Under the pieces are notes generated by a model, which saw only the letters and a list, made by a program, of their open reading frames with translations, did not search any database and was not told where the DNA came from. Shown here in pieces: positions 2,651 through 25,633 of a stretch of 32,000 bases of DNA; the stretch's first letter is position 1, and each line of letters starts with the position of its first letter. A program made the position numbers and the translations under genes. The stretch is from contig NC_020304.1 in NCBI RefSeq assembly GCF_000341395.1, forward strand, positions 2,040,001-2,072,000. Reading direction: 5' to 3'. The DNA comes from Desulfocapsa sulfexigens DSM 10523. GTDB lineage: Bacteria > Desulfobacterota > Desulfobulbia > Desulfobulbales > Desulfocapsaceae.

Positions 2651-3079
2651 AATTTCTCCTGACATTGTCATACGTTCGATTATGATAACTACTCACAATC
2701 TAATAGCAATACACCTTAAAAGCAATACAAAAATACATGTTACCAATAAGATACTGCTGTTTCCTTCCGCCGACCAAGGCTTTTTTTTGCTGTCGGACAA
2801 TATGACCAAAGCCTGAAAGAAAGAGTTATGTCGCTCCGTCTCAGGTTTGTGTTCTTTATTTGCCCGGCTAGAACACCATTTCCCAGATACTGCACTGTTG
2901 ATCAGAAGATCAAGCGACTGGCCGAATGCCAGCTGCGGACGGCAGTTTTTGTTATCTGAGTTTTCCGATGCTCCTAAAAACAAAGACATCTGTTTTCTCA
3001 ATAATACGATCCCGGGCGGTAAAGGTAAATAGTCAAAATACTTAATTTACACTATTCGGATGCCGTTTATTATAGATAC

Positions 3080-3109
3080 TTGCTGTCCTGTGGACCTTTA
3101 CTGTATAAT
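3080..3109 (+). promoter_or_regulatory. Candidate sigma70 promoter for the DciA-like gene
   Basis: TTGCTG (3080-3085), an 18-nt spacer, then TATAAT (3104-3109) with an upstream TG (extended -10). A 17-bp palindrome, AATCTCTT-T-AAGAGATT (3107-3123), overlaps the -10 and start region. Confidence 0.35.
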
Positions 3110-3273
3110 CTCTTTAAGAGATTCATTGTCCAGTCAATTGTGACGAGTCTGACTTGACATTTCACCCTTTCAGGTAGCATTTGATTCATGATATATATTA
3201 TATCCCTGTTATGGAAAATGTAAATAGGTAGAAATACCCAATTTTTAGTTTGATGTGGTCGAGATAAAGGGTC

Positions 3274-3747
3274 GTGGAAAAAAAGAGTAAGCATCTGCAA
3301 TGCTTGGAAGAATTGCTACCTCAAGTTACCATCCAACGGGGCTGGGAAGAACAGCTTGATCTTCATTCCATCTTTTTGCGGTGGGATGATCTTGTTGAAA
3401 GTGATGTGGCTGAGCATTGTCAGCCATTGAAAATTATAAAGTCCGTGTTATGGGTCGAGGTGGAAAACTCTGCCTGGTTACAGCAACTCCAGTATCAGAC
3501 CGTTCCGTTATTAGATATTTTGAATAATTCGCTCCGTTTGTCCAAGTTGAAGGGCCTGCGGTTTTGCCTGGCGGAGAAGAATTCTGAAAAGAAAAAGAGT
3601 GAGGCCGTTCTTCGCTATATTCAACCATCTTCCCGGGATATTGAAGCTTTTGAACAGCAAGCAGGGACAATAGCCGATAAGGATTCCCGAGATGCTCTGG
3701 TGCGTTTCTGGTATCTTTCACAGGCCTGTATAAAAAATGATCTGTAG
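3274..3747 (+). CDS. DUF721 / DciA-like protein
   Basis: The segment HCQPLKIIKSVLWVEVENSAWLQQLQYQTVPLLDILNNSL matches the remembered DUF721 core (H..P..l..g.L.v.v.s..W...L.......ll..lN). GTG start at 3274. Confidence 0.6.
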   Translation: MEKKSKHLQCLEELLPQVTIQRGWEEQLDLHSIFLRWDDLVESDVAEHCQPLKIIKSVLWVEVENSAWLQQLQYQTVPLLDILNNSLRLSKLKGLRFCLAEKNSEKKKSEAVLRYIQPSSRDIEAFEQQAGTIADKDSRDALVRFWYLSQACIKNDL

Positions 3748-3844: not shown

Positions 3845-6172
3845 GTGATGATTTACGATAACGTTTTAGACGCCATTGGAAATACTCCGCTCATTAGGGT
3901 GAATCGTTTGAATTCTTCTGATGTTCCGGTCTATGCAAAACTCGAATCCAGTAATCCTGGCGGCTCTGTGAAAGAAAGAATCTCTCTGTCCCTGATTGAG
4001 GCTGGTGAGGCCAGTGGAGAGTTGAGTGCTGATAAGATAGTCCTTGAGGCAACCAGTGGTAATACCGGTATTGGGCTTGCCATGGTTTGTGCAGCAAAAG
4101 GATATCGTTGTCAGCTGGTCATGCCAGAATCCGCATCCCTGGAGCGAAGGCAGATTATGCAGGCCTATGGGGCTGAGATTCTTCTTACTCCTGCAAAAAG
4201 GAGTACGGACGGAGCCATAGAAAAAGCCTATGCGATGGCTCGTGAGCACCCTGATCGCTACTATCTTACAGATCAATTCAATAACGAAGCTAACTGGCGG
4301 GCTCATTATGACCACACTGCACCAGAAATCTGGCAACAGACAGATGGAAGGGTTACCCATGTAGTAGCAACACTTGGTACATCGGGCACTGTTATGGGGC
4401 TCTGTAAGTGGTTTGCTGAACATCATCCCGAAGTAGAGGTTGTTGCCGTAGAGCCATTCCTTGGGCATAAAATTCAGGGCCTTAAAAACATGAAAGAGTC
4501 TTATCGTCCTGGAATATTTGACAAATCTCTCCCGACAAGGATTGTGAACATTGAGGATGAAGATGCTTTTCGTATGGCAAGACTCCTTGCAAGGGAAGAG
4601 GGCTTGCTGGTTGGTATGAGTAGTGGTGCCGCAATGTTCTGCGCGCTTCAATTAGCGGGAGAACTGGATGACGGGTTTATCGTAACAATTATTCCGGATG
4701 GTGGTGAGCGCTATCTTTCAACACCCCTGTTTACACGAAAGAATAAGGTTACTGAGAAAAAAACTGATCTTTGTTTTTTTAATACACTCACCAAAAAGAA
4801 GGAAGAATTTCGTCCACAGAAGGAAAAATACGTCAGTTTCTATACCTGTGGACCGACCGCTTACGAACCTGCCAATCTTTCCCTTTGCAGGCGTTTTGTT
4901 GTTTCAGATCTTATTACCCGCTATCTGGAACACAAGGGTTATGAAGTGAATTCCTGTATGAACTTTACCGATCTCGATGATAATACAATACAGGGTGCGA
5001 ATAAGGCCGGTAAGTCACTTGGGGAATTCACCAGTAAGTATATTGATGGATTTATGGCGGATATCGATTCGCTCAGTATTAAGCGGGCTACTCATTACCC
5101 CAGGGCTTCCGAGCATGTTGCAGACATGATAGAAATCAGCCATGAGTTGCTCCATAAAGGGTTTGCCTATGAAAAGCATGGCTCTATTTATTTCGATATT
5201 TCCAAATTTAAGAAATATGGCCGCCTGTCAGGCATTGATCTTGGCAAGATTCAGCTGGGAAAAACAGTCGATCTTGATAATTATGAAAAGGATAATCCCC
5301 GTGATTTTACACTGCTGAAACGTTCAACCCTGGCAGAGTTGAAAAAGGGGATATTTTATGAGACTGATTGGGGAAATGTACGACCAGGATGGCATATTGA
5401 GTGTTCGGCAATGTCGACCAAATATCTTGGCGAAACCATGGATATACATACCTCCAGCCGTGATCTGATTTTCCCTCATCATGAAAATGAAATAGCCATT
5501 GCTGAAGCGCTGACGGGAAAGCAACTGGCCAGGTACTGGCTGCATTCGGAACTGTTGCTGGTTGACGGAAAAAAAATGTCAGTGGAAGCTGGAAATGTAG
5601 TGACCCTGAATGATGCCGTTCTGCGTGGTTTTACGCCACGGGATGTCCGTTTCATGCTGCTCTCAGTCCATTATCGGAAGCCGATTAATTTTTCTTTCCG
5701 ACGGCTGATCAACGTCCGAACTGCTCTACGCCGGATTGATGAGTTTACCTGTAAATTGCTTTGTCTGCCTCCTGGAAAACCTCACCCCGAAGTTGCTGCC
5801 TATGTTTCTGCAATGGAGGAACAGTTTTTTGCCGCCATGGATGATGATCTGAATGTTTCAAAGGGGATGGGGGCAATTTATAAGTTTATCAAGCGCACCA
5901 ATCCGATTCTTCATGTGAATCATCTGGATGGTGATCAAAAAAAATACATTCTCGAAAGTTTGGGAAAGATAAACGGAATCCTGCAAATTTTCCGTCTCAA
6001 AGGTTGTCCGCTTGCCCCTTCCGTGAATGCTATTATTAAGCGACGAGAGGAGGCGCGACAGGGGAAAGACTGGAAAGCTGCTGATGAGGCTCGTGATGAA
6101 CTCATTCGCCAGGGAATCCAGATTATTGATACAGCCACCGGGCCTGTATGGAAAAAGGTCGATGAGGAATGA
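3845..6172 (+). CDS. Fusion protein: cysteine synthase (CysK/CysM-like, PLP-dependent) joined to a cysteinyl-tRNA-synthetase-like module with degenerate HIGH and KMSKS motifs
   Basis: Single 775-aa ORF; the ATG at 3848 is the likely start. The N-terminal ~305 aa carry NPGGSVKER (PLP lysine), TSGNTG, GTSGT, SSGAA and GGERYLS. From about nt 4765 the sequence LCFFNTLTKKKEEF...YTCGPTAY...NFTDLDDN...PGWHIECSAM...FPHHENEIA...RREEARQGKDWKAADEARDEL...GPVWKK is colinear with CysRS. See findings. Confidence 0.85.
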   Translation: MMIYDNVLDAIGNTPLIRVNRLNSSDVPVYAKLESSNPGGSVKERISLSLIEAGEASGELSADKIVLEATSGNTGIGLAMVCAAKGYRCQLVMPESASLERRQIMQAYGAEILLTPAKRSTDGAIEKAYAMAREHPDRYYLTDQFNNEANWRAHYDHTAPEIWQQTDGRVTHVVATLGTSGTVMGLCKWFAEHHPEVEVVAVEPFLGHKIQGLKNMKESYRPGIFDKSLPTRIVNIEDEDAFRMARLLAREEGLLVGMSSGAAMFCALQLAGELDDGFIVTIIPDGGERYLSTPLFTRKNKVTEKKTDLCFFNTLTKKKEEFRPQKEKYVSFYTCGPTAYEPANLSLCRRFVVSDLITRYLEHKGYEVNSCMNFTDLDDNTIQGANKAGKSLGEFTSKYIDGFMADIDSLSIKRATHYPRASEHVADMIEISHELLHKGFAYEKHGSIYFDISKFKKYGRLSGIDLGKIQLGKTVDLDNYEKDNPRDFTLLKRSTLAELKKGIFYETDWGNVRPGWHIECSAMSTKYLGETMDIHTSSRDLIFPHHENEIAIAEALTGKQLARYWLHSELLLVDGKKMSVEAGNVVTLNDAVLRGFTPRDVRFMLLSVHYRKPINFSFRRLINVRTALRRIDEFTCKLLCLPPGKPHPEVAAYVSAMEEQFFAAMDDDLNVSKGMGAIYKFIKRTNPILHVNHLDGDQKKYILESLGKINGILQIFRLKGCPLAPSVNAIIKRREEARQGKDWKAADEARDELIRQGIQIIDTATGPVWKKVDEE

Positions 6173-6241: not shown

Positions 6242-6318
6242 GCGCCAGTAGCTCAGCTGGATAGAGCAACGGCCTTCTAAGCCGTAGGTCACAGGTTCGA
6301 ACCCTGTCTGGCGTACCA
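6242..6318 (+). tRNA. tRNA-Arg (anticodon UCU), CCA encoded
   Basis: Cloverleaf folded by hand. Acceptor GCGCCAG/CTGGCGT (G1-U72 wobble). D arm GCTC-AGCTGGATA-GAGC. Anticodon arm ACGGC-CTTCTAA-GCCGT, giving anticodon TCT. Variable loop AGGTC. T arm ACAGG-TTCGAAC-CCTGT. Discriminator A plus CCA. 77 nt in total. Confidence 0.9.
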
Positions 6319-6790: not shown

Positions 6791-7576
6791 ATGAGTGGTA
6801 AAAGTAAACTACGCCGCTATAGGCTAATACTTGAGTATGATGGAACCAATTTCAGTGGCTGGCAGAAACAGGTGAATGTCCGGACTGTGCAGGGGGATGT
6901 ACTGAAGGGTGCGGCACGTGTTTTTGGGGAGGTCCCGATGGATCTTCAGGGCTGTGGTCGTACCGATTCTGGGGTCCATGCTCTCGAATATGTAGCCCAC
7001 CTTGAGGTGGCAGCTGATATGGGGCCACATGAAGTTGCAAGAAAGCTTAATGAGACACTGCCAAAAGACATAGCCGTAAGGTCAGTTGAAGCAGCAGGGG
7101 CTCGTTTTCATGCACGTCATAACTGTATAGCAAGAAGTTATGTCTATCAGATTCGAACAGAGAAATCGGCTTTTGGAAAACGTTATGACTGGTGGGTACA
7201 GGCGGATTTGGATCTGCCTGCGATGCAGCATGCCGGGTCGTTGATGACAGGCATGCATGATTTTGCCGCTTTTGCCGAAAAAAAGGAGCTGAAAAAATCA
7301 ACCAGGGTCTTGATTCATAACGTTGAGGTTTTTAAAGAGAAGGAAATTCTTAAGATCCGGGTTGTCGGGTCTCATTTTCTCTGGCATATGGTTCGAAGGA
7401 TGGTTGGGATTATGGTTGAGGTGGGCTGTCACCGCTTAACGGAGGAAGATGTTCAAAACATGCTCGAAGACCATTCCAATGCTTTACCATCTCATCATAC
7501 TGCACCGAGCGCTGGCCTGTTTTTCGAGAAAGCCTTTTATGACAGTGAGGGGCTGGCTGAATTGTTAAAAGAGTGA
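6791..7576 (+). CDS. truA: tRNA pseudouridine(38-40) synthase TruA
   Basis: YRLILEYDGTNFSGWQKQ and GCGRTDSGVHA (catalytic Asp motif); the 261-aa length is typical. Confidence 0.9.
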   Translation: MSGKSKLRRYRLILEYDGTNFSGWQKQVNVRTVQGDVLKGAARVFGEVPMDLQGCGRTDSGVHALEYVAHLEVAADMGPHEVARKLNETLPKDIAVRSVEAAGARFHARHNCIARSYVYQIRTEKSAFGKRYDWWVQADLDLPAMQHAGSLMTGMHDFAAFAEKKELKKSTRVLIHNVEVFKEKEILKIRVVGSHFLWHMVRRMVGIMVEVGCHRLTEEDVQNMLEDHSNALPSHHTAPSAGLFFEKAFYDSEGLAELLKE

Positions 7577-19971: not shown

Positions 19972-20028
19972 AATGTACATTGACATGTGAGGATGATTTG
20001 CTGTATTGGTGTTATGTGAATGTACATT
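19972..20028 (+). promoter_or_regulatory. lexA-operon promoter bracketed by two AATGTACATT palindromes (candidate LexA operators)
   Basis: Perfect 10-bp palindromes at 19972-19981 and 20019-20028. TTGACA at 19980-19985, a 16-nt spacer, then TGTATT at 20002-20007. Box 1 overlaps the -35. Box 2 lies just downstream of the -10. Confidence 0.45.
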
Positions 20029-20049
20029 TGTCGTGAGCGAGGAAAATAT

Positions 20050-20673
20050 ATGGATCTTACAGAAAAGCAACAGCAACTTTTTGACTATTTACAGGAATAT
20101 CTTGAGCGGGAAGGACGGGCACCCAGCTTGCGCCAGTCTGCCGAAAGTCTGGGTGTAAGTCATAATGCCGTGGCGCAGTTAATCACTCAGCTGGAACGGA
20201 AAGGGGTCGTTGAGCGGGAGGGTCGCTACAGCAGAACCATCCGTATTTTATCTCCACACACTGCAGCAAAAGCGAAGATGCGGGTACGGGAATTGCCGAT
20301 TGTAGGAAGGGTTACGGCAGGGTTGCCCATGTACGCCCAGCAGGAATGGGATGGTTCCGTGGTGGTTGATGGAAATCTGTTTCCCGGTAATAATCTTTTT
20401 TGTCTGCGGGTGCAGGGTGAGTCCATGCAGGATGCGGGCATATTAAATGGTGATCTGGTTGTCTGCGAACCCCGGCAGTATGCAGAGAATGGAGAGATTG
20501 TCGCTGTTCTCATTCAGGGGGAAGAGGCCACGGTGAAACGGTTCTTTCTTGGAAGGGATCATATCGAGTTGCGACCGGAGAATAAAAAATTCACTGCCGT
20601 CCGTTATCCCTTTTCCGAAATTCTGGTGCAGGGAAAGGTTATGGGTGTGATCAGAAGCTATGACAAAAGATAA
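20050..20673 (+). CDS. lexA: LexA repressor (S24 peptidase)
   Basis: The start at ATG 20050 has GAGGAA upstream. Winged-HTH N-terminus (SLRQSAESLGVSHNAVAQLITQLERKG), cleavage-site region GRVTAGLP, catalytic Ser in QGESM and Lys in TVKRF. Confidence 0.9.
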   Translation: MDLTEKQQQLFDYLQEYLEREGRAPSLRQSAESLGVSHNAVAQLITQLERKGVVEREGRYSRTIRILSPHTAAKAKMRVRELPIVGRVTAGLPMYAQQEWDGSVVVDGNLFPGNNLFCLRVQGESMQDAGILNGDLVVCEPRQYAENGEIVAVLIQGEEATVKRFFLGRDHIELRPENKKFTAVRYPFSEILVQGKVMGVIRSYDKR

Positions 20674-21454
20674 GTTGTGCCCGGTGCTCATCGGCACCAG
20701 TGGGTATTCCTATACCGAGTGGGTGGATAGTGGTTTTTATCCACAGGGTACAAGAACCCCAGGAATGCTGGAGCTTTATGCAGATGTATTTCCCATTGTT
20801 GAACTGAATTACACCTGGTACCAGATGGTGCGCGCAGAAGCCATCAGCCGTATGATTGCAAAGGCTCCCGAGAGCTTTTTGTTTGCTGCCAAACTGACAA
20901 GGACACTTACTCACGAAAGAAATCGTGACTGGCAACAGGAACTGAAGCAGTATCGTGAGGGGATTCAGCCTCTGCGCAAGCAACTGACAGCGATTCTGGT
21001 TCAGTTGCCGCCTGATTTTGATTGGAGCAGAAGTAATCGCTATTATTTGGCTCATCTGCTCGATGCTTTGCGTGGCTTTCCCCTCGCAGTTGAATTTCGT
21101 CACGTCTCCTGGGCAAGAGATTCGGTGTTTGCAGAGCTTGAGAAGAGGCGTGTGACCATAGTTACCGTAGATTCCCCGTCAGAGCCAAATCTTTTTCCCT
21201 GTCTGGATATTGTTACTAACCCTGATCTCTTTTTTGTCCGTTTTCATGGGCGCAACAGGCAGGGATGGAAATCTGCTAATATGCAGAAGAAATTTGACTA
21301 CTCCTATTCCAGGGAGGAACTGGAAGAGTGGAATGAAAAATATTTGACTTCGTTGCGTGCCAATGCCGAGCTGGGTGTTGTCTTCTTCAATAACCATGTT
21401 CGTGCCCAGGCACCAGAAAATGGCAGGCTTTTACAGACTCTTTTGCAGAACTGA
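20660..21454 (+). CDS. DUF72 (YecE / UPF0759) family protein
   Basis: LIGTSGYSYTEWVDSGFYP, FPIVELNYTWY, LAVEFRHVSW, FVRFHGRN and VFFNNH are the remembered DUF72 blocks. The ATG overlaps the lexA 3' end by 14 nt. Confidence 0.85.
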   Translation: MTKDKLCPVLIGTSGYSYTEWVDSGFYPQGTRTPGMLELYADVFPIVELNYTWYQMVRAEAISRMIAKAPESFLFAAKLTRTLTHERNRDWQQELKQYREGIQPLRKQLTAILVQLPPDFDWSRSNRYYLAHLLDALRGFPLAVEFRHVSWARDSVFAELEKRRVTIVTVDSPSEPNLFPCLDIVTNPDLFFVRFHGRNRQGWKSANMQKKFDYSYSREELEEWNEKYLTSLRANAELGVVFFNNHVRAQAPENGRLLQTLLQN

Positions 21455-21460
21455 AAGGAA

Positions 21461-22633
21461 ATGGATAGAGCCATTATTCATTTGAATGTCACTGATTTTG
21501 CAGTGGCAGTGGAACGGATTCGGGATAGTTCCTTGAGGCAGGTCCCCTTGATTGTTGCGACCGGAGAGGCTGGAAAAGGAAGAACCCTTGTCTTTGATAT
21601 GAGTGAGGAAGCATATCAGGAGGGAGTGCGCAAGGGCATGCAGTTGAACCTTGCTCGTAAGTACTGCAACAGGGCAAAGGTCATTACCCCCTGTCCCGCT
21701 TTGTATCGCAGAGCTATGGCAGCTCTTGTTAAACGGGTGGCCTACTATACTCCCCTGGTGGAGCAGGGAGAAGAGGATGGCCATCTGTTTCTTGATGTCA
21801 CCGGGACACATCGGCTCTTCGGGCCGGCCCCTGATGTGGCCTGGAGACTTCGTAAACAGCTGCTGGATGAGTTGGGGCTTGATCCTGTCTGGAGTCTTGC
21901 TTCTAATAAACTGGTTTCCAAGGTTGCTTCAAGAGTGGTACGACCTTTTGGTGAGTATATTGTGAGCGTGGGTGAGGAAGATACATTTCTGGCACCCCTG
22001 CCGCTGTCCATGTTGCCAGGGGTAACTGCTGAGGAGATACGGCTTCTGGAGGATTTTAACGTAAGGCGGATTGGTCAACTTGCAGAACTCAGCAGGAAGC
22101 AACTTCTGGTGGTTTCCAGGACGCGTAACGGGGTTCTCCATGATGCCAGTCGGGGCCGGGACATTACAGCGGTTCTTCCCGGGATAACAAAGGATGATCA
22201 AATAACAGAGGAGCATGTTTTTGAAGAAGATACGGCAAGATACGGGGAGGTGCAGGCGGTCCTTACCCAGCTTGTTCACGGGATAGCAAGAGTCCTGCGG
22301 CAGAGACGCCTTCTTGGACAGCGCGTGGGGATCTGTCTGGTCTATGGAGATGGAAAAAAAACATCCAGGCAGGTGTCCAGGAAAGGAGGGTCTGATAGTG
22401 ATTTCATCCTGCGCAGGATGGCTCTTACAGCCCTAGACAGGGCCTGGGGGAGGCGCATTCGGATCCGTAGTTGTGTTTTGATTTGTGATCGTCTGCTGCC
22501 ACGTACCCAACAGCAGACGCTTTTTGTCATGCAGAGCGAGCGGGAACAGCAGGAGGAAAAAATTATGAGTGCCATGGATATGGTGCGCAGTCGTTTTGGT
22601 GCTGGACGGCTATACCTGGGGACTAGCTCCTAG
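21461..22633 (+). CDS. imuB: ImuB-type catalytically inactive Y-family polymerase homolog
   Basis: The Y-family N-terminus is colinear with DinB, but IHVDMDCF reads IHLNVTDF and the SLDE catalytic pair reads DGH, so the catalytic acidic residues are missing as in ImuB. It sits directly upstream of dnaE2. Confidence 0.8.
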   Translation: MDRAIIHLNVTDFAVAVERIRDSSLRQVPLIVATGEAGKGRTLVFDMSEEAYQEGVRKGMQLNLARKYCNRAKVITPCPALYRRAMAALVKRVAYYTPLVEQGEEDGHLFLDVTGTHRLFGPAPDVAWRLRKQLLDELGLDPVWSLASNKLVSKVASRVVRPFGEYIVSVGEEDTFLAPLPLSMLPGVTAEEIRLLEDFNVRRIGQLAELSRKQLLVVSRTRNGVLHDASRGRDITAVLPGITKDDQITEEHVFEEDTARYGEVQAVLTQLVHGIARVLRQRRLLGQRVGICLVYGDGKKTSRQVSRKGGSDSDFILRRMALTALDRAWGRRIRIRSCVLICDRLLPRTQQQTLFVMQSEREQQEEKIMSAMDMVRSRFGAGRLYLGTSS

Positions 22634-22636
22634 GCC

Positions 22637-25633
22637 GTGTTCCCTCTTTTTGTCCGTTCTTACTATTCGTTTATGCGTGGTTGCAGTTCTCCAGCAAGTA
22701 TCTGCAAACGTGCTCAGGAGCTTGGCTACACCGTTCTGGCACTCACCGATTGTGATTCACTCGCCGGGGTCTGGCCCTTTCTTGCCGCCTGTAAAAAATA
22801 TGGTATTCGTCCTCTTATTGCTGCAGAAATCAGTGACCGAAAGAATTCCGATACGGTTATCTGTCTGGTACGTAATGCTATCGGTTATAGGAATTTATGC
22901 AATTTAATAACCAGGAGAAAAGGAGATCCTCTTTTCACCCTGGAACAGAATCTTATACAATATAGTGATGGCCTTATCTGTATCGCTTCCTCGCGTCCTC
23001 TCCTGGAAAAGCTTCAAAAGAATACTATAGACCTGGCTGTAAACCTTGGTGACAGGCCGACGGAAAAATCCAGTTATTTGAGGAAATGGGCGCAAAAAAA
23101 AAGTGTTTCCGCCGTGGCCATCCCTATTGTGTTTATGGCAGATAAAAAAGAGAGATTGCTCCTGCAGCTCATGAGGGCGATAGAGACCAAAAGCCTCCTG
23201 ACATCATGTGAGGTGAAGTCGGGACTACCATCGTGCTGGTTGCAATCTCCTGCAACGTATTATGAAAAATTTGCGGTGTGGCCCGAAGCATTAACAGAAG
23301 CTGAGAATCTTGCGAGACGCTGCAGCTTTTCCGGCCCGCCATCAGACCTGGTCATGCCTCCCTGGAACAGAAGTGGGAGAGGGGCAGCTTTTTCACTCCG
23401 ACAGGCCGCTTATGAGGGGGCCTGTGTTCGCTATGGGACAGATCTTTCCGAGGCTGTGGTTGAGCGATTGGAGATGGAGCTTCGAGTGATTGATTCCATG
23501 GGCTTTTCTTCCTATTTTCTCGTTGTCCGCGATATCGTACATCAGGCTGTTGGAGAAAGAAGTGGCCGCTGCTTACGCATATGCGGTCGTGGGTCAGGTG
23601 CAGCTTCACTTGTGGCCTACTGTCTTGAAATTACCAATGTCTGTCCTTTAAAGTACAATCTTTATTTTGAACGATTTCTTAACCCAGGTCGTACTGATCC
23701 TCCTGATATTGACATTGATTTTTCATGGGATGAACGGGATGGAGTGCTTGCGCAGGTTCTCCGGAAATATGGGCATAATGCCGCCATGGTCTCAACTATT
23801 ATCCGCTTCCAGCCCCGAATGGCTATTCGGGAAACAGCAAGGGCGTTTGGGTTGCCAGCAGAGGAAATTGCAAAGACAGGTAACCTCAGCAGATTACCGG
23901 GTGCAGGGACCAAAAAGCTTGTGGCACCATGGCCTGAAATTATGGAACTTGCTTCTTCTTTACTGGGTGTGCCGCGTCACCTGTCAGTTCATCCAGGAGG
24001 GGTCATTATAACACCGGAACCTGTAAGCAATTATGTCCCGGTTGAGACTGCTTCCAAGGGGGTCCCTATCATCCAGTGGGATAAGGATGGAGCAGAGGCG
24101 GGAGGACTCGTGAAGATCGACCTGCTTGGTAATCGCAGTCTTGGGGTGATCAGGGATTGTATTGCATCCCTTTCAGAGAGTGGTCGAAGTTTTGATGAAG
24201 AGTACTGGCAGCCTGAGGATGACCCGGCAACGAAAATGGCAGTAGCAGCGGGAGAGACCATGGGGTGCTTTTATATAGAAAGTCCGGCCATGCGTCTGTT
24301 GCAACAGAAGGCGGGAAGCGGGGACTTTGAGCAGCTTGTGCTGCAGTCTTCTATCATTCGTCCTGCTGCCAATGATTTTATACGTGAATATGTGCGCCGT
24401 CTTCACGGGGGGGCGTGGCAGTATCTACATCCGGAATTGGCAACAGTGCTTGATGAGACCTTTGGTCTTATGGTGTATCAGGAGGATGTGTCGAGGGTAG
24501 CTGTTGCCCTTGCGGGCTTCAGTCATGCACGCGCAGATTGCCTGCGTAAAGTGATGTCTAAAAAAGATAAGCAGCTGCGTTTAAAAGATTATCGGCTTGA
24601 ATTTGAAAGGGGATGTGAAGCTAGAGGTGTCGACAGGGAAACAATTGAAAAACTCTGGGACATGATGATGAGTTTTGATGGGTATTCGTTCTGTAAACCG
24701 CATTCGGCTTCCTATGCACGGGTGTCGTATCAGGCTGCATACCTGAAGACACATCATCCAGCGGAATTTATGGCAGCGGTAATTTCCAATCAAGGAGGCT
24801 ATTACTCAACATTTGCCTATGTTTCAGAAGCAAAACGAATGGGGATAGGCATATTGCCTCCCTGCGTGAATCACAGTCAGGTAAGATGGTGTAGAGAGGG
24901 AGATGTATCGGTAAAAAATATCCGGGTGGGATTGATGGCTGTGAAGAATTTGTCAACGGCCACCATGGGCAGGATCTTGTATTGCAGAGAGAAAAAAGAA
25001 TTCGTTTCAAGTATTGATTTCTGGCAACGTGTCCAGCCGCAAAAGGATGAATGCAGATCGCTTATCCAGGCTGGTGCACTGGATGCGCTTGGTAGTAAAA
25101 ATAAAAGAAATAGAAGCAATCTGTTTTGGGAACTTGCTCAGTTCAGGTGTTTTGCAGGGGCACAGGCGAGAAGCCCTCTTTTCTGCCTGGATTTACCTCC
25201 GGCTCCAGATCTTCCATCGTTTAATGTGAGGGAAATACAGCAGCAGGAGTATGATGCACTGGATTTCCTTTGCAGCTCCCATCCACTGCTTTTCTATGAA
25301 CAACAGCTCAATGGGAGGATAAAAGGCTGTGATCTGAAGAGCTATGCTGGAAAGAATATCCGCTTTGCCGGATGGTTGCTCAGCAGAAAGATGGTTTCAA
25401 CAAAAACCGGAGAGGTAATGGAATTTCTAACCTTTGAGGACGAAACAGGGGTAGTGGAAACAACATTTTTTCCACGAGTCTATCGTCGCTATGCAGCAAT
25501 TCTGAATCCAGGACAGGCCTATATGTTACTGGGAAAGGTAGAAGAAGAATATGGCGCGGTGACCCTGACGGTAGCCGGAGTGGAGAAACTCGGATCAGTT
25601 TTTGTTCGAGGTGCGCTGCAGGTCGGCGATTAA
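22637..25633 (+). CDS. dnaE2: Error-prone DNA polymerase III alpha paralog DnaE2 (ImuC)
   Basis: 998 aa, with a PHP-like N-terminus (SYYSFMRGCS...LALTDCDSLAG) and Pol III alpha core blocks (DIDIDF, HPGGVII, FYIESPAMR, QEDV, FCKPHSASYA). The GTG start is 3 nt after the imuB stop. Confidence 0.85.
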   Translation: MFPLFVRSYYSFMRGCSSPASICKRAQELGYTVLALTDCDSLAGVWPFLAACKKYGIRPLIAAEISDRKNSDTVICLVRNAIGYRNLCNLITRRKGDPLFTLEQNLIQYSDGLICIASSRPLLEKLQKNTIDLAVNLGDRPTEKSSYLRKWAQKKSVSAVAIPIVFMADKKERLLLQLMRAIETKSLLTSCEVKSGLPSCWLQSPATYYEKFAVWPEALTEAENLARRCSFSGPPSDLVMPPWNRSGRGAAFSLRQAAYEGACVRYGTDLSEAVVERLEMELRVIDSMGFSSYFLVVRDIVHQAVGERSGRCLRICGRGSGAASLVAYCLEITNVCPLKYNLYFERFLNPGRTDPPDIDIDFSWDERDGVLAQVLRKYGHNAAMVSTIIRFQPRMAIRETARAFGLPAEEIAKTGNLSRLPGAGTKKLVAPWPEIMELASSLLGVPRHLSVHPGGVIITPEPVSNYVPVETASKGVPIIQWDKDGAEAGGLVKIDLLGNRSLGVIRDCIASLSESGRSFDEEYWQPEDDPATKMAVAAGETMGCFYIESPAMRLLQQKAGSGDFEQLVLQSSIIRPAANDFIREYVRRLHGGAWQYLHPELATVLDETFGLMVYQEDVSRVAVALAGFSHARADCLRKVMSKKDKQLRLKDYRLEFERGCEARGVDRETIEKLWDMMMSFDGYSFCKPHSASYARVSYQAAYLKTHHPAEFMAAVISNQGGYYSTFAYVSEAKRMGIGILPPCVNHSQVRWCREGDVSVKNIRVGLMAVKNLSTATMGRILYCREKKEFVSSIDFWQRVQPQKDECRSLIQAGALDALGSKNKRNRSNLFWELAQFRCFAGAQARSPLFCLDLPPAPDLPSFNVREIQQQEYDALDFLCSSHPLLFYEQQLNGRIKGCDLKSYAGKNIRFAGWLLSRKMVSTKTGEVMEFLTFEDETGVVETTFFPRVYRRYAAILNPGQAYMLLGKVEEEYGAVTLTVAGVEKLGSVFVRGALQVGD

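Follow-up and report, generated by a model that had tools for sequence, protein, structure and literature searches.

A gene of Desulfocapsa sulfexigens DSM 10523 (Desulfobulbales) encodes a cysteine synthase fused to a relative of cysteinyl-tRNA synthetase (CysRS) in which the HIGH and KMSKS motifs are replaced. The gene lies on the forward strand at positions 3845-6172 of the window, the 32,000-nucleotide stretch analysed here (contig NC_020304.1, positions 2,040,001 to 2,072,000), to which all window coordinates refer. We propose, at a probability of about one half, that the protein is a competent CysM-type synthase carrying a non-adenylating CysRS paralog that acts as a cysteine/tRNA-Cys-sensing module. 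The N-terminal half would be an active O-acetyl/O-phosphoserine sulfhydrylase of the CysM type, and the C-terminal 465 residues a CysRS paralog no longer forming cysteinyl adenylate. This pseudo-synthetase keeps the Zn-thiolate cysteine pocket and the residues reading the GCA anticodon. By analogy with the regulatory systems compared below, it may sense its ligand and so tie cysteine synthesis to the free-cysteine pool and/or to the state of tRNA-Cys, while a housekeeping CysRS would be encoded elsewhere in the same genome.

The fusion gene and its cysteine synthase half

Window positions 3845-6172 form a single unbroken frame of 775 codons, and the 775-residue protein with a full-length CysRS-like body described in the first-pass annotation was borne out by the open reading frame (ORF), Pfam and TIGR00435, the body spanning aa 309-771. 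The ORF opens with GTG-ATG (3845-3850); because homologues begin M[LI]Y, the start codon is probably the ATG at 3848. No obvious Shine-Dalgarno sequence was seen upstream of the ORF start. Three other long ORFs lie antisense to the gene or out of frame within it, at 3866-4651 (-), 4698-4949 (+) and 5324-5545 (-), and are most likely by-products of its coding frame. The gene and its parts are as follows.

3845..6172, +, fusion gene, CysM-like cysteine synthase plus pseudo-CysRS (ORF, Pfam, NCBIfam; same fusion in more than 120 homologue clusters)
3857..4735, +, CysK/CysM-type domain dependent on pyridoxal phosphate (PLP), aa 5-297 (PALP, TIGR01136, Foldseek)
4736..4768, +, Lys-rich linker TRKNKVTEKKT, aa 298-308 (low identity, low model confidence)
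4769..5710, +, CysRS-like Rossmann and connective-peptide (CP) catalytic body, aa 309-622 (Pfam tRNA-synt_1e, Foldseek)
5711..6010, +, stem-contact fold and helical bundle, aa 623-722 (Pfam DALR_2; helices modelled with high confidence)
6011..6157, +, C-terminal alpha/beta anticodon-binding domain, aa 723-771 (Pfam CysS_C, PF23493)

The two halves had been described as fused without a linker. No in-frame ATG, GTG or TTG lies between them, as had been claimed, but residues 298-308 do form a short Lys-rich linker. Its mean identity across the family is 51%, whereas the CysK half reaches 82% and the catalytic part of the CysRS-like half 84%; the linker also contains the sole segment (aa 300-305) at which the predicted local distance difference test score (pLDDT) of the AlphaFold2 model falls below 50. 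At the same position, relatives in which the two halves are separate genes have a stop codon and a gap of 2-4 nt. A run of seven A (4757-4763) lies within the linker and a run of seven T (4774-4780) just after it, at the coordinates first reported.

These runs raised the concern that an indel had joined ordinary cysK and cysS genes, which proved not to be the case. Among 5.8 billion proteins searched, more than 120 clusters at 75-92% identity had both domains; all 120 listed clusters are fused (118 of 773-807 aa, two of 683 aa) and come from independent assemblies. Named clusters belong to Desulfotalea psychrophila, Desulfocapsa, Desulfoprunum, Desulfobulbaceae or Thermodesulfobacteriota. In addition, an exact copy of the window protein occurs with the same synteny on an independent Logan contig, and an assembly or frameshift artefact is thus ruled out. 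In NCBI and IMG the family proteins bear the name "cysteine--tRNA ligase", a consequence of their scoring above the TIGR00435 cut-off.

The N-terminal half matches PALP (PF00291; aa 8-285, 4e-70) and exceeds the TIGR01136 cysKM cut-off in NCBIfam (359.5 bits against 344.15). Neither equivalog cut-off is reached, with 349.7 bits against 394.2 for CysM and 322.7 against 350.95 for CysK, and its substrate and nucleophile are uncertain for this reason. Its best sequence matches in the PDB are Mycobacterium tuberculosis CysK1 and the CysM of E. coli and Salmonella, with about 44% identity to CysM. Alignment to M. tuberculosis CysK1 places all the motifs of a PLP-dependent synthase on the forward strand.

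nt 3971-3973, +, PLP lysine K43 in SVKER
aa 70-75, +, Asn loop TSGNTG
aa 178-182, +, phosphate loop GTSGT
aa 259-263, +, SSGAA, with the Ser that contacts the pyridine nitrogen

Among 121 family sequences, two of which are truncated at the N-terminus, S[VI]KER is found in 119, TSGNTG in 118, and GTSGT or GTTGT in all. In CysK and CysM enzymes the Asn loop clamps the free alpha-carboxylate. The assignment to a CysK/CysM-type PLP enzyme therefore stood as regards motifs, and modelling refined it. In Foldseek the N-terminal half superposes on CysM 2v03/2bht with a template-modelling (TM) score of 0.96 and a root-mean-square deviation (rmsd) of 1.6 (0.94-0.96 across 2bhs, 2v03 and 2bht), and on CysK1 2q3b with a TM of 0.91; in the model, CysM is its closest structural relative. 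With CysM, or O-acetylserine sulfhydrylase B (2v03, 2bhs, 2jc3), it shares the fold, the short CysM-type loop and every PLP motif. The fusion protein differs in the extra 465-residue C-terminal module and in missing both equivalog cut-offs.

The AlphaFold2 model used here was built from a 117-sequence alignment and has a mean pLDDT of 93.3 and a predicted TM score of 0.74, with most of the CysRS-like catalytic body above 95; it superseded an unusable model from a 16-sequence alignment, in which the CysRS half had a pLDDT of 55.8. According to this model, the CysRS fold is intact, including the anticodon domain. The C-terminal half matches CysRS 8qhp at TM 0.93 and rmsd 2.0, and superposes on 1u0b, the complex of E. 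coli CysRS with tRNA-Cys, across 476 columns (TM 0.82). No solved chain in the Foldseek search covered both halves of the fusion.

Residues lost and kept in the CysRS-like half

The C-terminal half is recognizable as CysRS along its whole length. Pfam places tRNA-synt_1e (PF01406) at aa 322-622 (6e-92), DALR_2 at 660-715 and the CysS_C 'anticodon binding domain' at 723-760. TIGR00435 (cysS) scores 398 bits against a cut-off of 340 and is covered from position 2 to 465 of 466, whereas the MshC model TIGR03447 reaches 193.8 bits of the 485.1 needed. Motifs were placed by residue-level alignment to the solved CysRS 8qhp and to E. coli CysRS 1li5. HIGH/HLGH is replaced by NLSL, IHGGGxDL by IHTSSRDL, KMSKS by KMSVE and DDKIIKR by DDNTIQG, while CGPT, NFTD, PGWHIECS and FPHHENE are retained. 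This pattern of loss and retention had been read from the letters and holds in the alignment, with NLSL (4874-4885) and KMSVE (5573-5587) at the nucleotides first given. Intact HIGH or KMSKS motifs elsewhere in the protein are ruled out by the alignments to the two solved enzymes and by a 106-sequence alignment. We take the Zn ligands of E. coli CysRS to be C28, C209, H234 and E238, and the assignments listed here rest on that. The residues C28 and C209 are as stated for the E. coli enzyme in PMC5660078.

4847..4858, +, CGPT, aa 335-338; C335 corresponds to Zn ligand C28 and G336 to G29 of E. coli CysRS; invariant in 121/121
4874..4894, +, former HIGH, now NLSL (aa 344-347), then C348 and paralog-specific RR (aa 349-350); aligned under HIGH/HLGH
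4886-4888, +, C348, directly after the former HIGH
5390..5404, +, WHIEC, aa 516-520; W516 corresponds to W205 and C520 to Zn ligand C209; W and C in 121/121
5450..5464, +, former GGxD, now TSSRD (aa 536-540); ATP-accommodating glycines replaced (G226S, G227S)
5477..5491, +, HHENE, aa 545-549; H545 corresponds to Zn ligand H234 and E549 to E238 in the alignment
5573..5587, +, former KMSKS loop, now KMSVE (aa 577-581); aligned under KMSKS
5750-5785, +, C636-x3-C640 and H647 in the invariant motif EFTCKLLCLPPGKPHPE; family alignments
6005-6007, +, C721; 121/121
aa 723-771, +, anticodon-domain residues R734, R738, D747, R750 and D762, corresponding in the alignment to E. coli R423, R427, D436, R439 and D451

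The 106-sequence alignment, in which the fusion family was set beside E. coli CysRS and 88 canonical representatives, was analysed column by column. Of 89 columns at least 85% conserved in canonical CysRS, the family keeps 73 and alters 16. The ATP site accounts for H37N and G39S in HIGH, G226S and G227S, K269V/A and S270E in KMSKS, and K73N in KIIK; the others, some of them in the CP domain, are R168T, W184L, W194Y, G201V, Q241I, S242A, V32A, T115S and A355G. The equivalents of C28, G29, T68, W205, C209, H234 and E238, which make up the Zn/cysteine pocket, are kept and invariant in 121/121. Those of R423, R427, D436, R439, G446, D451 and G455 in the anticodon domain are likewise kept; of them, R423, R427, D436, R439 and D451 occur in every family sequence, and their conservation in canonical CysRS is 88% or more.

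The survey of relatives, suggested at the outset as a check on the fusion and its motif loss, bore out both. Among the 121 sequences the former HIGH reads NLSL, NLLL, SLSL or similar and never contains His, whereas C348 and the following RR are always present. The former GGxD reads TSSRN in 60, TSSRD in 39 and TASRN in 18, so that the ribose-binding Asp (D229) is Asn in the majority. The second Lys of KMSKS is absent throughout and the first (K266) has become Met in about 45 of the 121; HHENE, by contrast, is kept in 118 and reads HHDNE in three. Such free variation of the K266 and D229 equivalents is what an ATP site released from constraint would show.

Purifying selection acts on the two halves of the gene with equal strength. 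Between the window gene and its homologue at locus L001, the proportion of non-synonymous differences (pN) is 0.069 in the CysK half, as against 0.057 in the CysRS-like half; synonymous sites are saturated. Because selection on it is as strong as on the CysK half, the CysRS-like half is functional and not decaying. The first-pass annotation had suggested that this module could hardly adenylate in the canonical way and might still bind cysteine or tRNA-Cys, and the computational evidence lends support to both parts: the ATP site drifts, while pocket and anticodon residues are fixed. Constraint on these residues suggests that the module still binds cysteine and tRNA-Cys, the anticodon residues in particular suggesting specificity for tRNA-Cys.

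Four cysteines, C348, C636, C640 and C721, occur in every one of the 121 family sequences, and H647 is invariant in a 16-sequence alignment. Canonical CysRS has none of these residues, and the cysteines are also missing from most other members of the wider clade described below. Together the four cysteines and the histidine might make up a second metal site, or else a redox site.

A wider clade of CysK-coupled paralogs

More distant relatives were sought by an exhaustive HMMER scan of 1.84 billion representatives. Proteins (P) and loci (L) carry our own numbers where they must be told apart. The forms associated with CysK differ in how much of the synthetase they retain.

P0124, 768-aa fusion from a metagenome-assembled genome (MAG) of Nanoarchaeota: HIGN / GGxDL / KMSKS, fully canonical
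P0121 and P0125 (fused), P0136 (split) and P0131, intermediate class: HxG[NL], IHTSG, KMSRS
Window's family, fused: NLSL / KMSVE
P0122, fused: Zn ligand C209 lost
P0126-P0128, fused: C28, T68, H206, E208, C209 and E238 lost; anticodon-domain residues kept

The TIGR00435 score falls from 519 bits in the canonical P0217 and 517 in P0124 to 451 in P0121, 398 in the window protein, 376 in P0133 and 113 in P0126, the last being a Desulfovibrio ferrophilus protein annotated "cysteine synthase". Unclassified deltaproteobacterial MAGs and one or more Desulfovibrio species also encode such relatives, and the 90% cluster of P0131 includes a 782-aa fusion, P0280. All CysK-associated forms except P0124 have the derived states R168T, W184L/F, G201V/A, Q241I/M/V, S242A/C and a residue other than Lys at 269. 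In neighbour-joining (NJ) trees they form one clade in 59 of 60 bootstraps, while P0124 groups with canonical enzymes and never with the clade (0/60). Anticodon-domain residues are retained in every paralog class of the clade. The series from canonical through intermediate to Zn-less forms can be regarded as a natural experiment in dismantling a synthetase while a new role is kept.

Every clade member with a readable gene context is fused to a CysK/M gene or lies directly 3' of one. In the stand-alone P0133 and P0136 a separate CysK/M gene is immediately upstream, with 2-4 nt from stop to start; the CysK/M gene and then the CysRS-like gene occupy L087 5108-7455 (P0133) and L089 251-2588 (P0136). 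CysK genes of the split forms are about 60% identical to fused N-terminal halves, the same range as fused halves among themselves, so that the CysK and CysRS-like pair is one module, fused or split, and a functional unit.

Two observations separate the clade from housekeeping enzymes. First, P0133 (HIGT / KMARS) and the canonical P0217 (HIGHARA / KMSKS) are encoded about 160 kb apart on one JGI contig (Ga0377239_000086, 269,753 bp), which makes P0133 a paralog and not the housekeeping enzyme. Second, judged by its residues, the Zn-less D. ferrophilus member is predicted to be incapable of acting as a synthetase. The canonical CysRS gene on the L087 contig adjoins serA-like and serC-like genes. 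The Nanoarchaeota fusion P0124 (L093 8001-10307) was found on four contigs; it is canonical at all derived positions, falls outside the paralog clade, and is presumably a true bifunctional enzyme that arose by an independent CysK-CysRS fusion.

Known systems, competing readings and genomic context

We infer that the CysRS-like module lacks adenylation, because the loss at the ATP site is selective and drifting, because the protein belongs to this clade, and because a relative coexists with a canonical CysRS. Binding of cysteine and tRNA, allosteric coupling to the synthase and a second cysS in the lineage would complete the proposal. Its best precedents are HisZ and the HisRS-like domain of GCN2. 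HisZ, a HisRS paralog without adenylation, serves as regulatory subunit of HisG and mediates histidine feedback (PMC9437257). HisZ and, by our proposal, the CysRS-like module are non-adenylating synthetase paralogs physically coupled to the cognate amino-acid biosynthetic enzyme; in the fusion family adenylation motifs are lost, the pocket is kept and the synthase is fused, whereas in the split clade members the synthase gene lies 2-4 nt away. However, HisZ is class II, a separate subunit without anticodon domain, and acts at the first pathway step, whereas the fusion protein is class I, usually fused, has a complete anticodon domain and would act at the last step, its regulatory role being proposed by analogy. 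If this is correct, it would represent a class I counterpart of HisZ, that is, a synthetase paralog controlling the synthesis of its own amino acid. Since it has a tRNA-reading domain, which HisZ lacks, control of metabolism through tRNA sensing could then be tested directly in bacteria.

The HisRS-like domain of GCN2 binds uncharged tRNA and reports amino-acid supply. GCN2 likewise joins a degenerate synthetase-like domain to an effector enzyme, and fits the retention of tRNA-anticodon determinants without catalysis; it differs in being eukaryotic, in binding many tRNAs and in having a kinase as effector in place of a PLP biosynthetic enzyme. Tentatively, and with the odds rather against it, the pseudo-CysRS might use its anticodon domain to read tRNA-Cys, uncharged or charged, and its Zn pocket to read free cysteine, switching the fused synthase on or off, with the wider clade acting as tRNA-Cys-responsive regulators. 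Such a switch would be the prokaryotic equivalent of GCN2 logic, working post-translationally on an enzyme of amino-acid biosynthesis. Transfer RNA binding may be the common function of the clade, because a pure cysteine sensor needs no anticodon domain and Zn-less members cannot sense cysteine in this way.

Canonical CysRS (TIGR00435; 1li5, 1u0b) has the full-length fold (TM 0.82-0.93), Zn ligands, pocket Trp and anticodon domain in common with the fusion, which differs in replacing HIGH, GGxD, KMSKS and KIIK, in the CP changes R168T, W184L, W194Y and G201V, and in its added N-terminal PLP enzyme. MshC (Cys:GlcN-Ins ligase) is also derived from CysRS, keeps the Zn/cysteine site, works outside translation and matches the fold at TM 0.84; it retains the class I motifs and is without an anticodon domain, whereas the fusion has lost these motifs and stays far below the TIGR03447 cut-off. 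MshC is ATP-dependent and not tRNA-dependent (PMC9437257). As far as the review's account of it extends, CysRS* of Desulfobacterales is an active enzyme without anticodon domain that charges a SelC-like tRNA (Mukai et al., cited in PMC9437257). By that account, it too is a CysRS paralog of the same bacterial phylum that coexists with the normal enzyme, and the fusion family shows the reverse arrangement, with the anticodon domain kept and the catalytic motifs lost. The architecture had been thought uncharacterised, and literature searches aimed at a CysK-CysRS fusion indeed found no description; a 2022 review of aminoacyl-tRNA synthetase paralogs names only CysRS* and MshC for CysRS (PMC9437257).

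The family is abundant in sulfur-cycling Desulfobulbales, and its label "cysteine--tRNA ligase" is probably a systematic functional misannotation. TIGR00435 is used as a single-copy marker. Misannotation of this kind can conceal that a genome bin lacks cysS, or make cysS look duplicated when it is not.

Several points weigh against a non-adenylating sensor. The fusion protein still exceeds the TIGR00435 equivalog cut-off. In E. coli CysRS (EcCARS), K266A and K269A mutants kept cell-free translation whereas C28D and C209D lost it (PMC5660078); for this reason, loss of KMSKS by itself says little about inactivity, and it is the pattern of changes taken together that carries the argument. HisZ has no anticodon domain, while the fusion family conserves one that would be superfluous for a pure cysteine sensor, and since some members have no Zn site, cysteine binding cannot be what unites the clade. 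The NJ clade could also be inflated by long-branch attraction among fast-evolving sequences. Furthermore, a canonical cysS from Desulfobulbales was not obtained; seeded searches and look-ups of cluster names reached other phyla. Seed P0137 led to Omnitrophica, Coatesbacteria and Acidobacteriota, seed P0212, in a scan of genome collections, to Syntrophales and Nitrospirota, and seed P0217 had no relatives above about 52% identity. The cluster names of 20 canonical representatives offered no usable Desulfobulbales seed, and the 32-kb window holds no other cysS.

These results could be turned into a case for a true bifunctional enzyme, in which the CysRS-like half charges tRNA-Cys with a non-canonical ATP site, perhaps as the sole CysRS, and cysteine is channelled into charging. 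The TIGR00435 score, the invariant pocket and anticodon residues, the strong purifying selection, the tolerance of EcCARS to Lys-to-Ala changes in KMSKS and the second cysS that the seeded searches did not find would all fit, and P0124, with its fully canonical motifs, indicates that such proteins are viable. Nevertheless, we regard it as unlikely: His is absent from either HIGH position in 121/121, both glycines of GG are replaced, and the K266 and D229 equivalents are free to vary. Derived substitutions and clade membership are shared with P0133, a protein encoded alongside a canonical CysRS, and with members that have lost Zn ligands, whereas P0124 is phylogenetically separate and canonical at every derived position.

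The functional options left by the first-pass annotation can be ranked to some extent, a sensor or tRNA scaffold being favoured over chemistry on a tRNA-bound substrate. According to the latter, the pseudo-CysRS would dock tRNA-Cys while the PLP domain acts on the bound amino acid, either by a beta-replacement like that of SepCysS or by persulfidation of Cys-tRNA-Cys. Retention of anticodon residues in every clade class, even without Zn and ATP sites, and superposition of the model on the CysRS:tRNA-Cys complex are consistent with this idea. It is nonetheless improbable, because the TSGNTG loop is intact and an ester-linked aminoacyl-tRNA would need a remodelled site, given the carboxylate clamp, and because neither SepRS nor another partner was present in any neighbourhood examined. 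Synthesis of cysteine persulfide with PLP has been reported for CARS (PMC5660078) and connects CysRS with both PLP and sulfur chemistry, but the PLP-binding lysines proposed for that activity (K73, K76 and K269) are all replaced in the fusion.

A sulfur relay has been considered as well, in which C348, C636, C640, C721 and H647, the last within EFTCKLLCLPPGKPHPE, would serve as a persulfide relay, second metal site or redox switch feeding or gating the synthase. The invariance of the cysteines, their absence from canonical CysRS and most other clade members, and hosts that are sulfate-reducing or sulfur-disproportionating Desulfobulbales speak for it. We hold it to be improbable, as the cysteines are limited to the Desulfobulbales subfamily and cannot account for the wider clade, and no CysO/ThiS-like, rhodanese or IscS genes lie near the fusion gene. 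It is very improbable that the CysRS half is an inert, decaying leftover from an ancestral bifunctional fusion, retained for folding or oligomerisation only. Stepwise motif loss across the clade, down to the Zn ligands, resembles decay, but by pN and by identity (84% against 82%) this half is as constrained as the CysK half, pocket and anticodon residues are fixed in 121/121, and split forms still carry both genes, although a useless one would have disappeared.

The genomic neighbourhood of the fusion gene varies. In Desulfotalea-like genomes the order is DciA, fusion gene, tRNA-Arg, DUF6172 and TruA, while other lineages have unrelated neighbours. Across eight neighbourhoods there was no conserved partner gene (cysE, SepRS or sulfur carriers), DciA being syntenic in close relatives only. 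The search for an upstream riboswitch or T-box was negative, the only Rfam match being the downstream tRNA-Arg. In the window the neighbours are the following.

3274-3747, DciA, preceding the fusion gene
6242-6318, +, tRNA-Arg (anticodon TCT), 70 nt past the fusion stop codon
6368-6739, DUF6172, small protein, after the tRNA-Arg
6791-7576, TruA, after DUF6172

At locus L095 of a deltaproteobacterial MAG, a HAD-family gene (PF12710, possibly SerB-like; 2698-3387) lies 35 nt upstream of P0280; it hints at a link to phosphoserine and was not seen in other lineages. Other CysRS architectures were also encountered: P0460 (705 aa) combines a hexapeptide-repeat, possibly CysE-like, domain with CysRS, P0453 and P0454 (652 aa) combine PF08915, a ThrRS-type editing domain, with CysRS, and P0188 is a 711-aa CysRS with a 210-aa N-terminal extension. 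Finally, the group at 20020-25633 (+) of the window, consisting of LexA (20020-20673), DUF72 (20660-21454), an ImuB-like Y-family polymerase (21461-22633) and a DnaE2-like Pol III alpha (22637-25633), looks like an SOS-inducible mutagenesis cassette.

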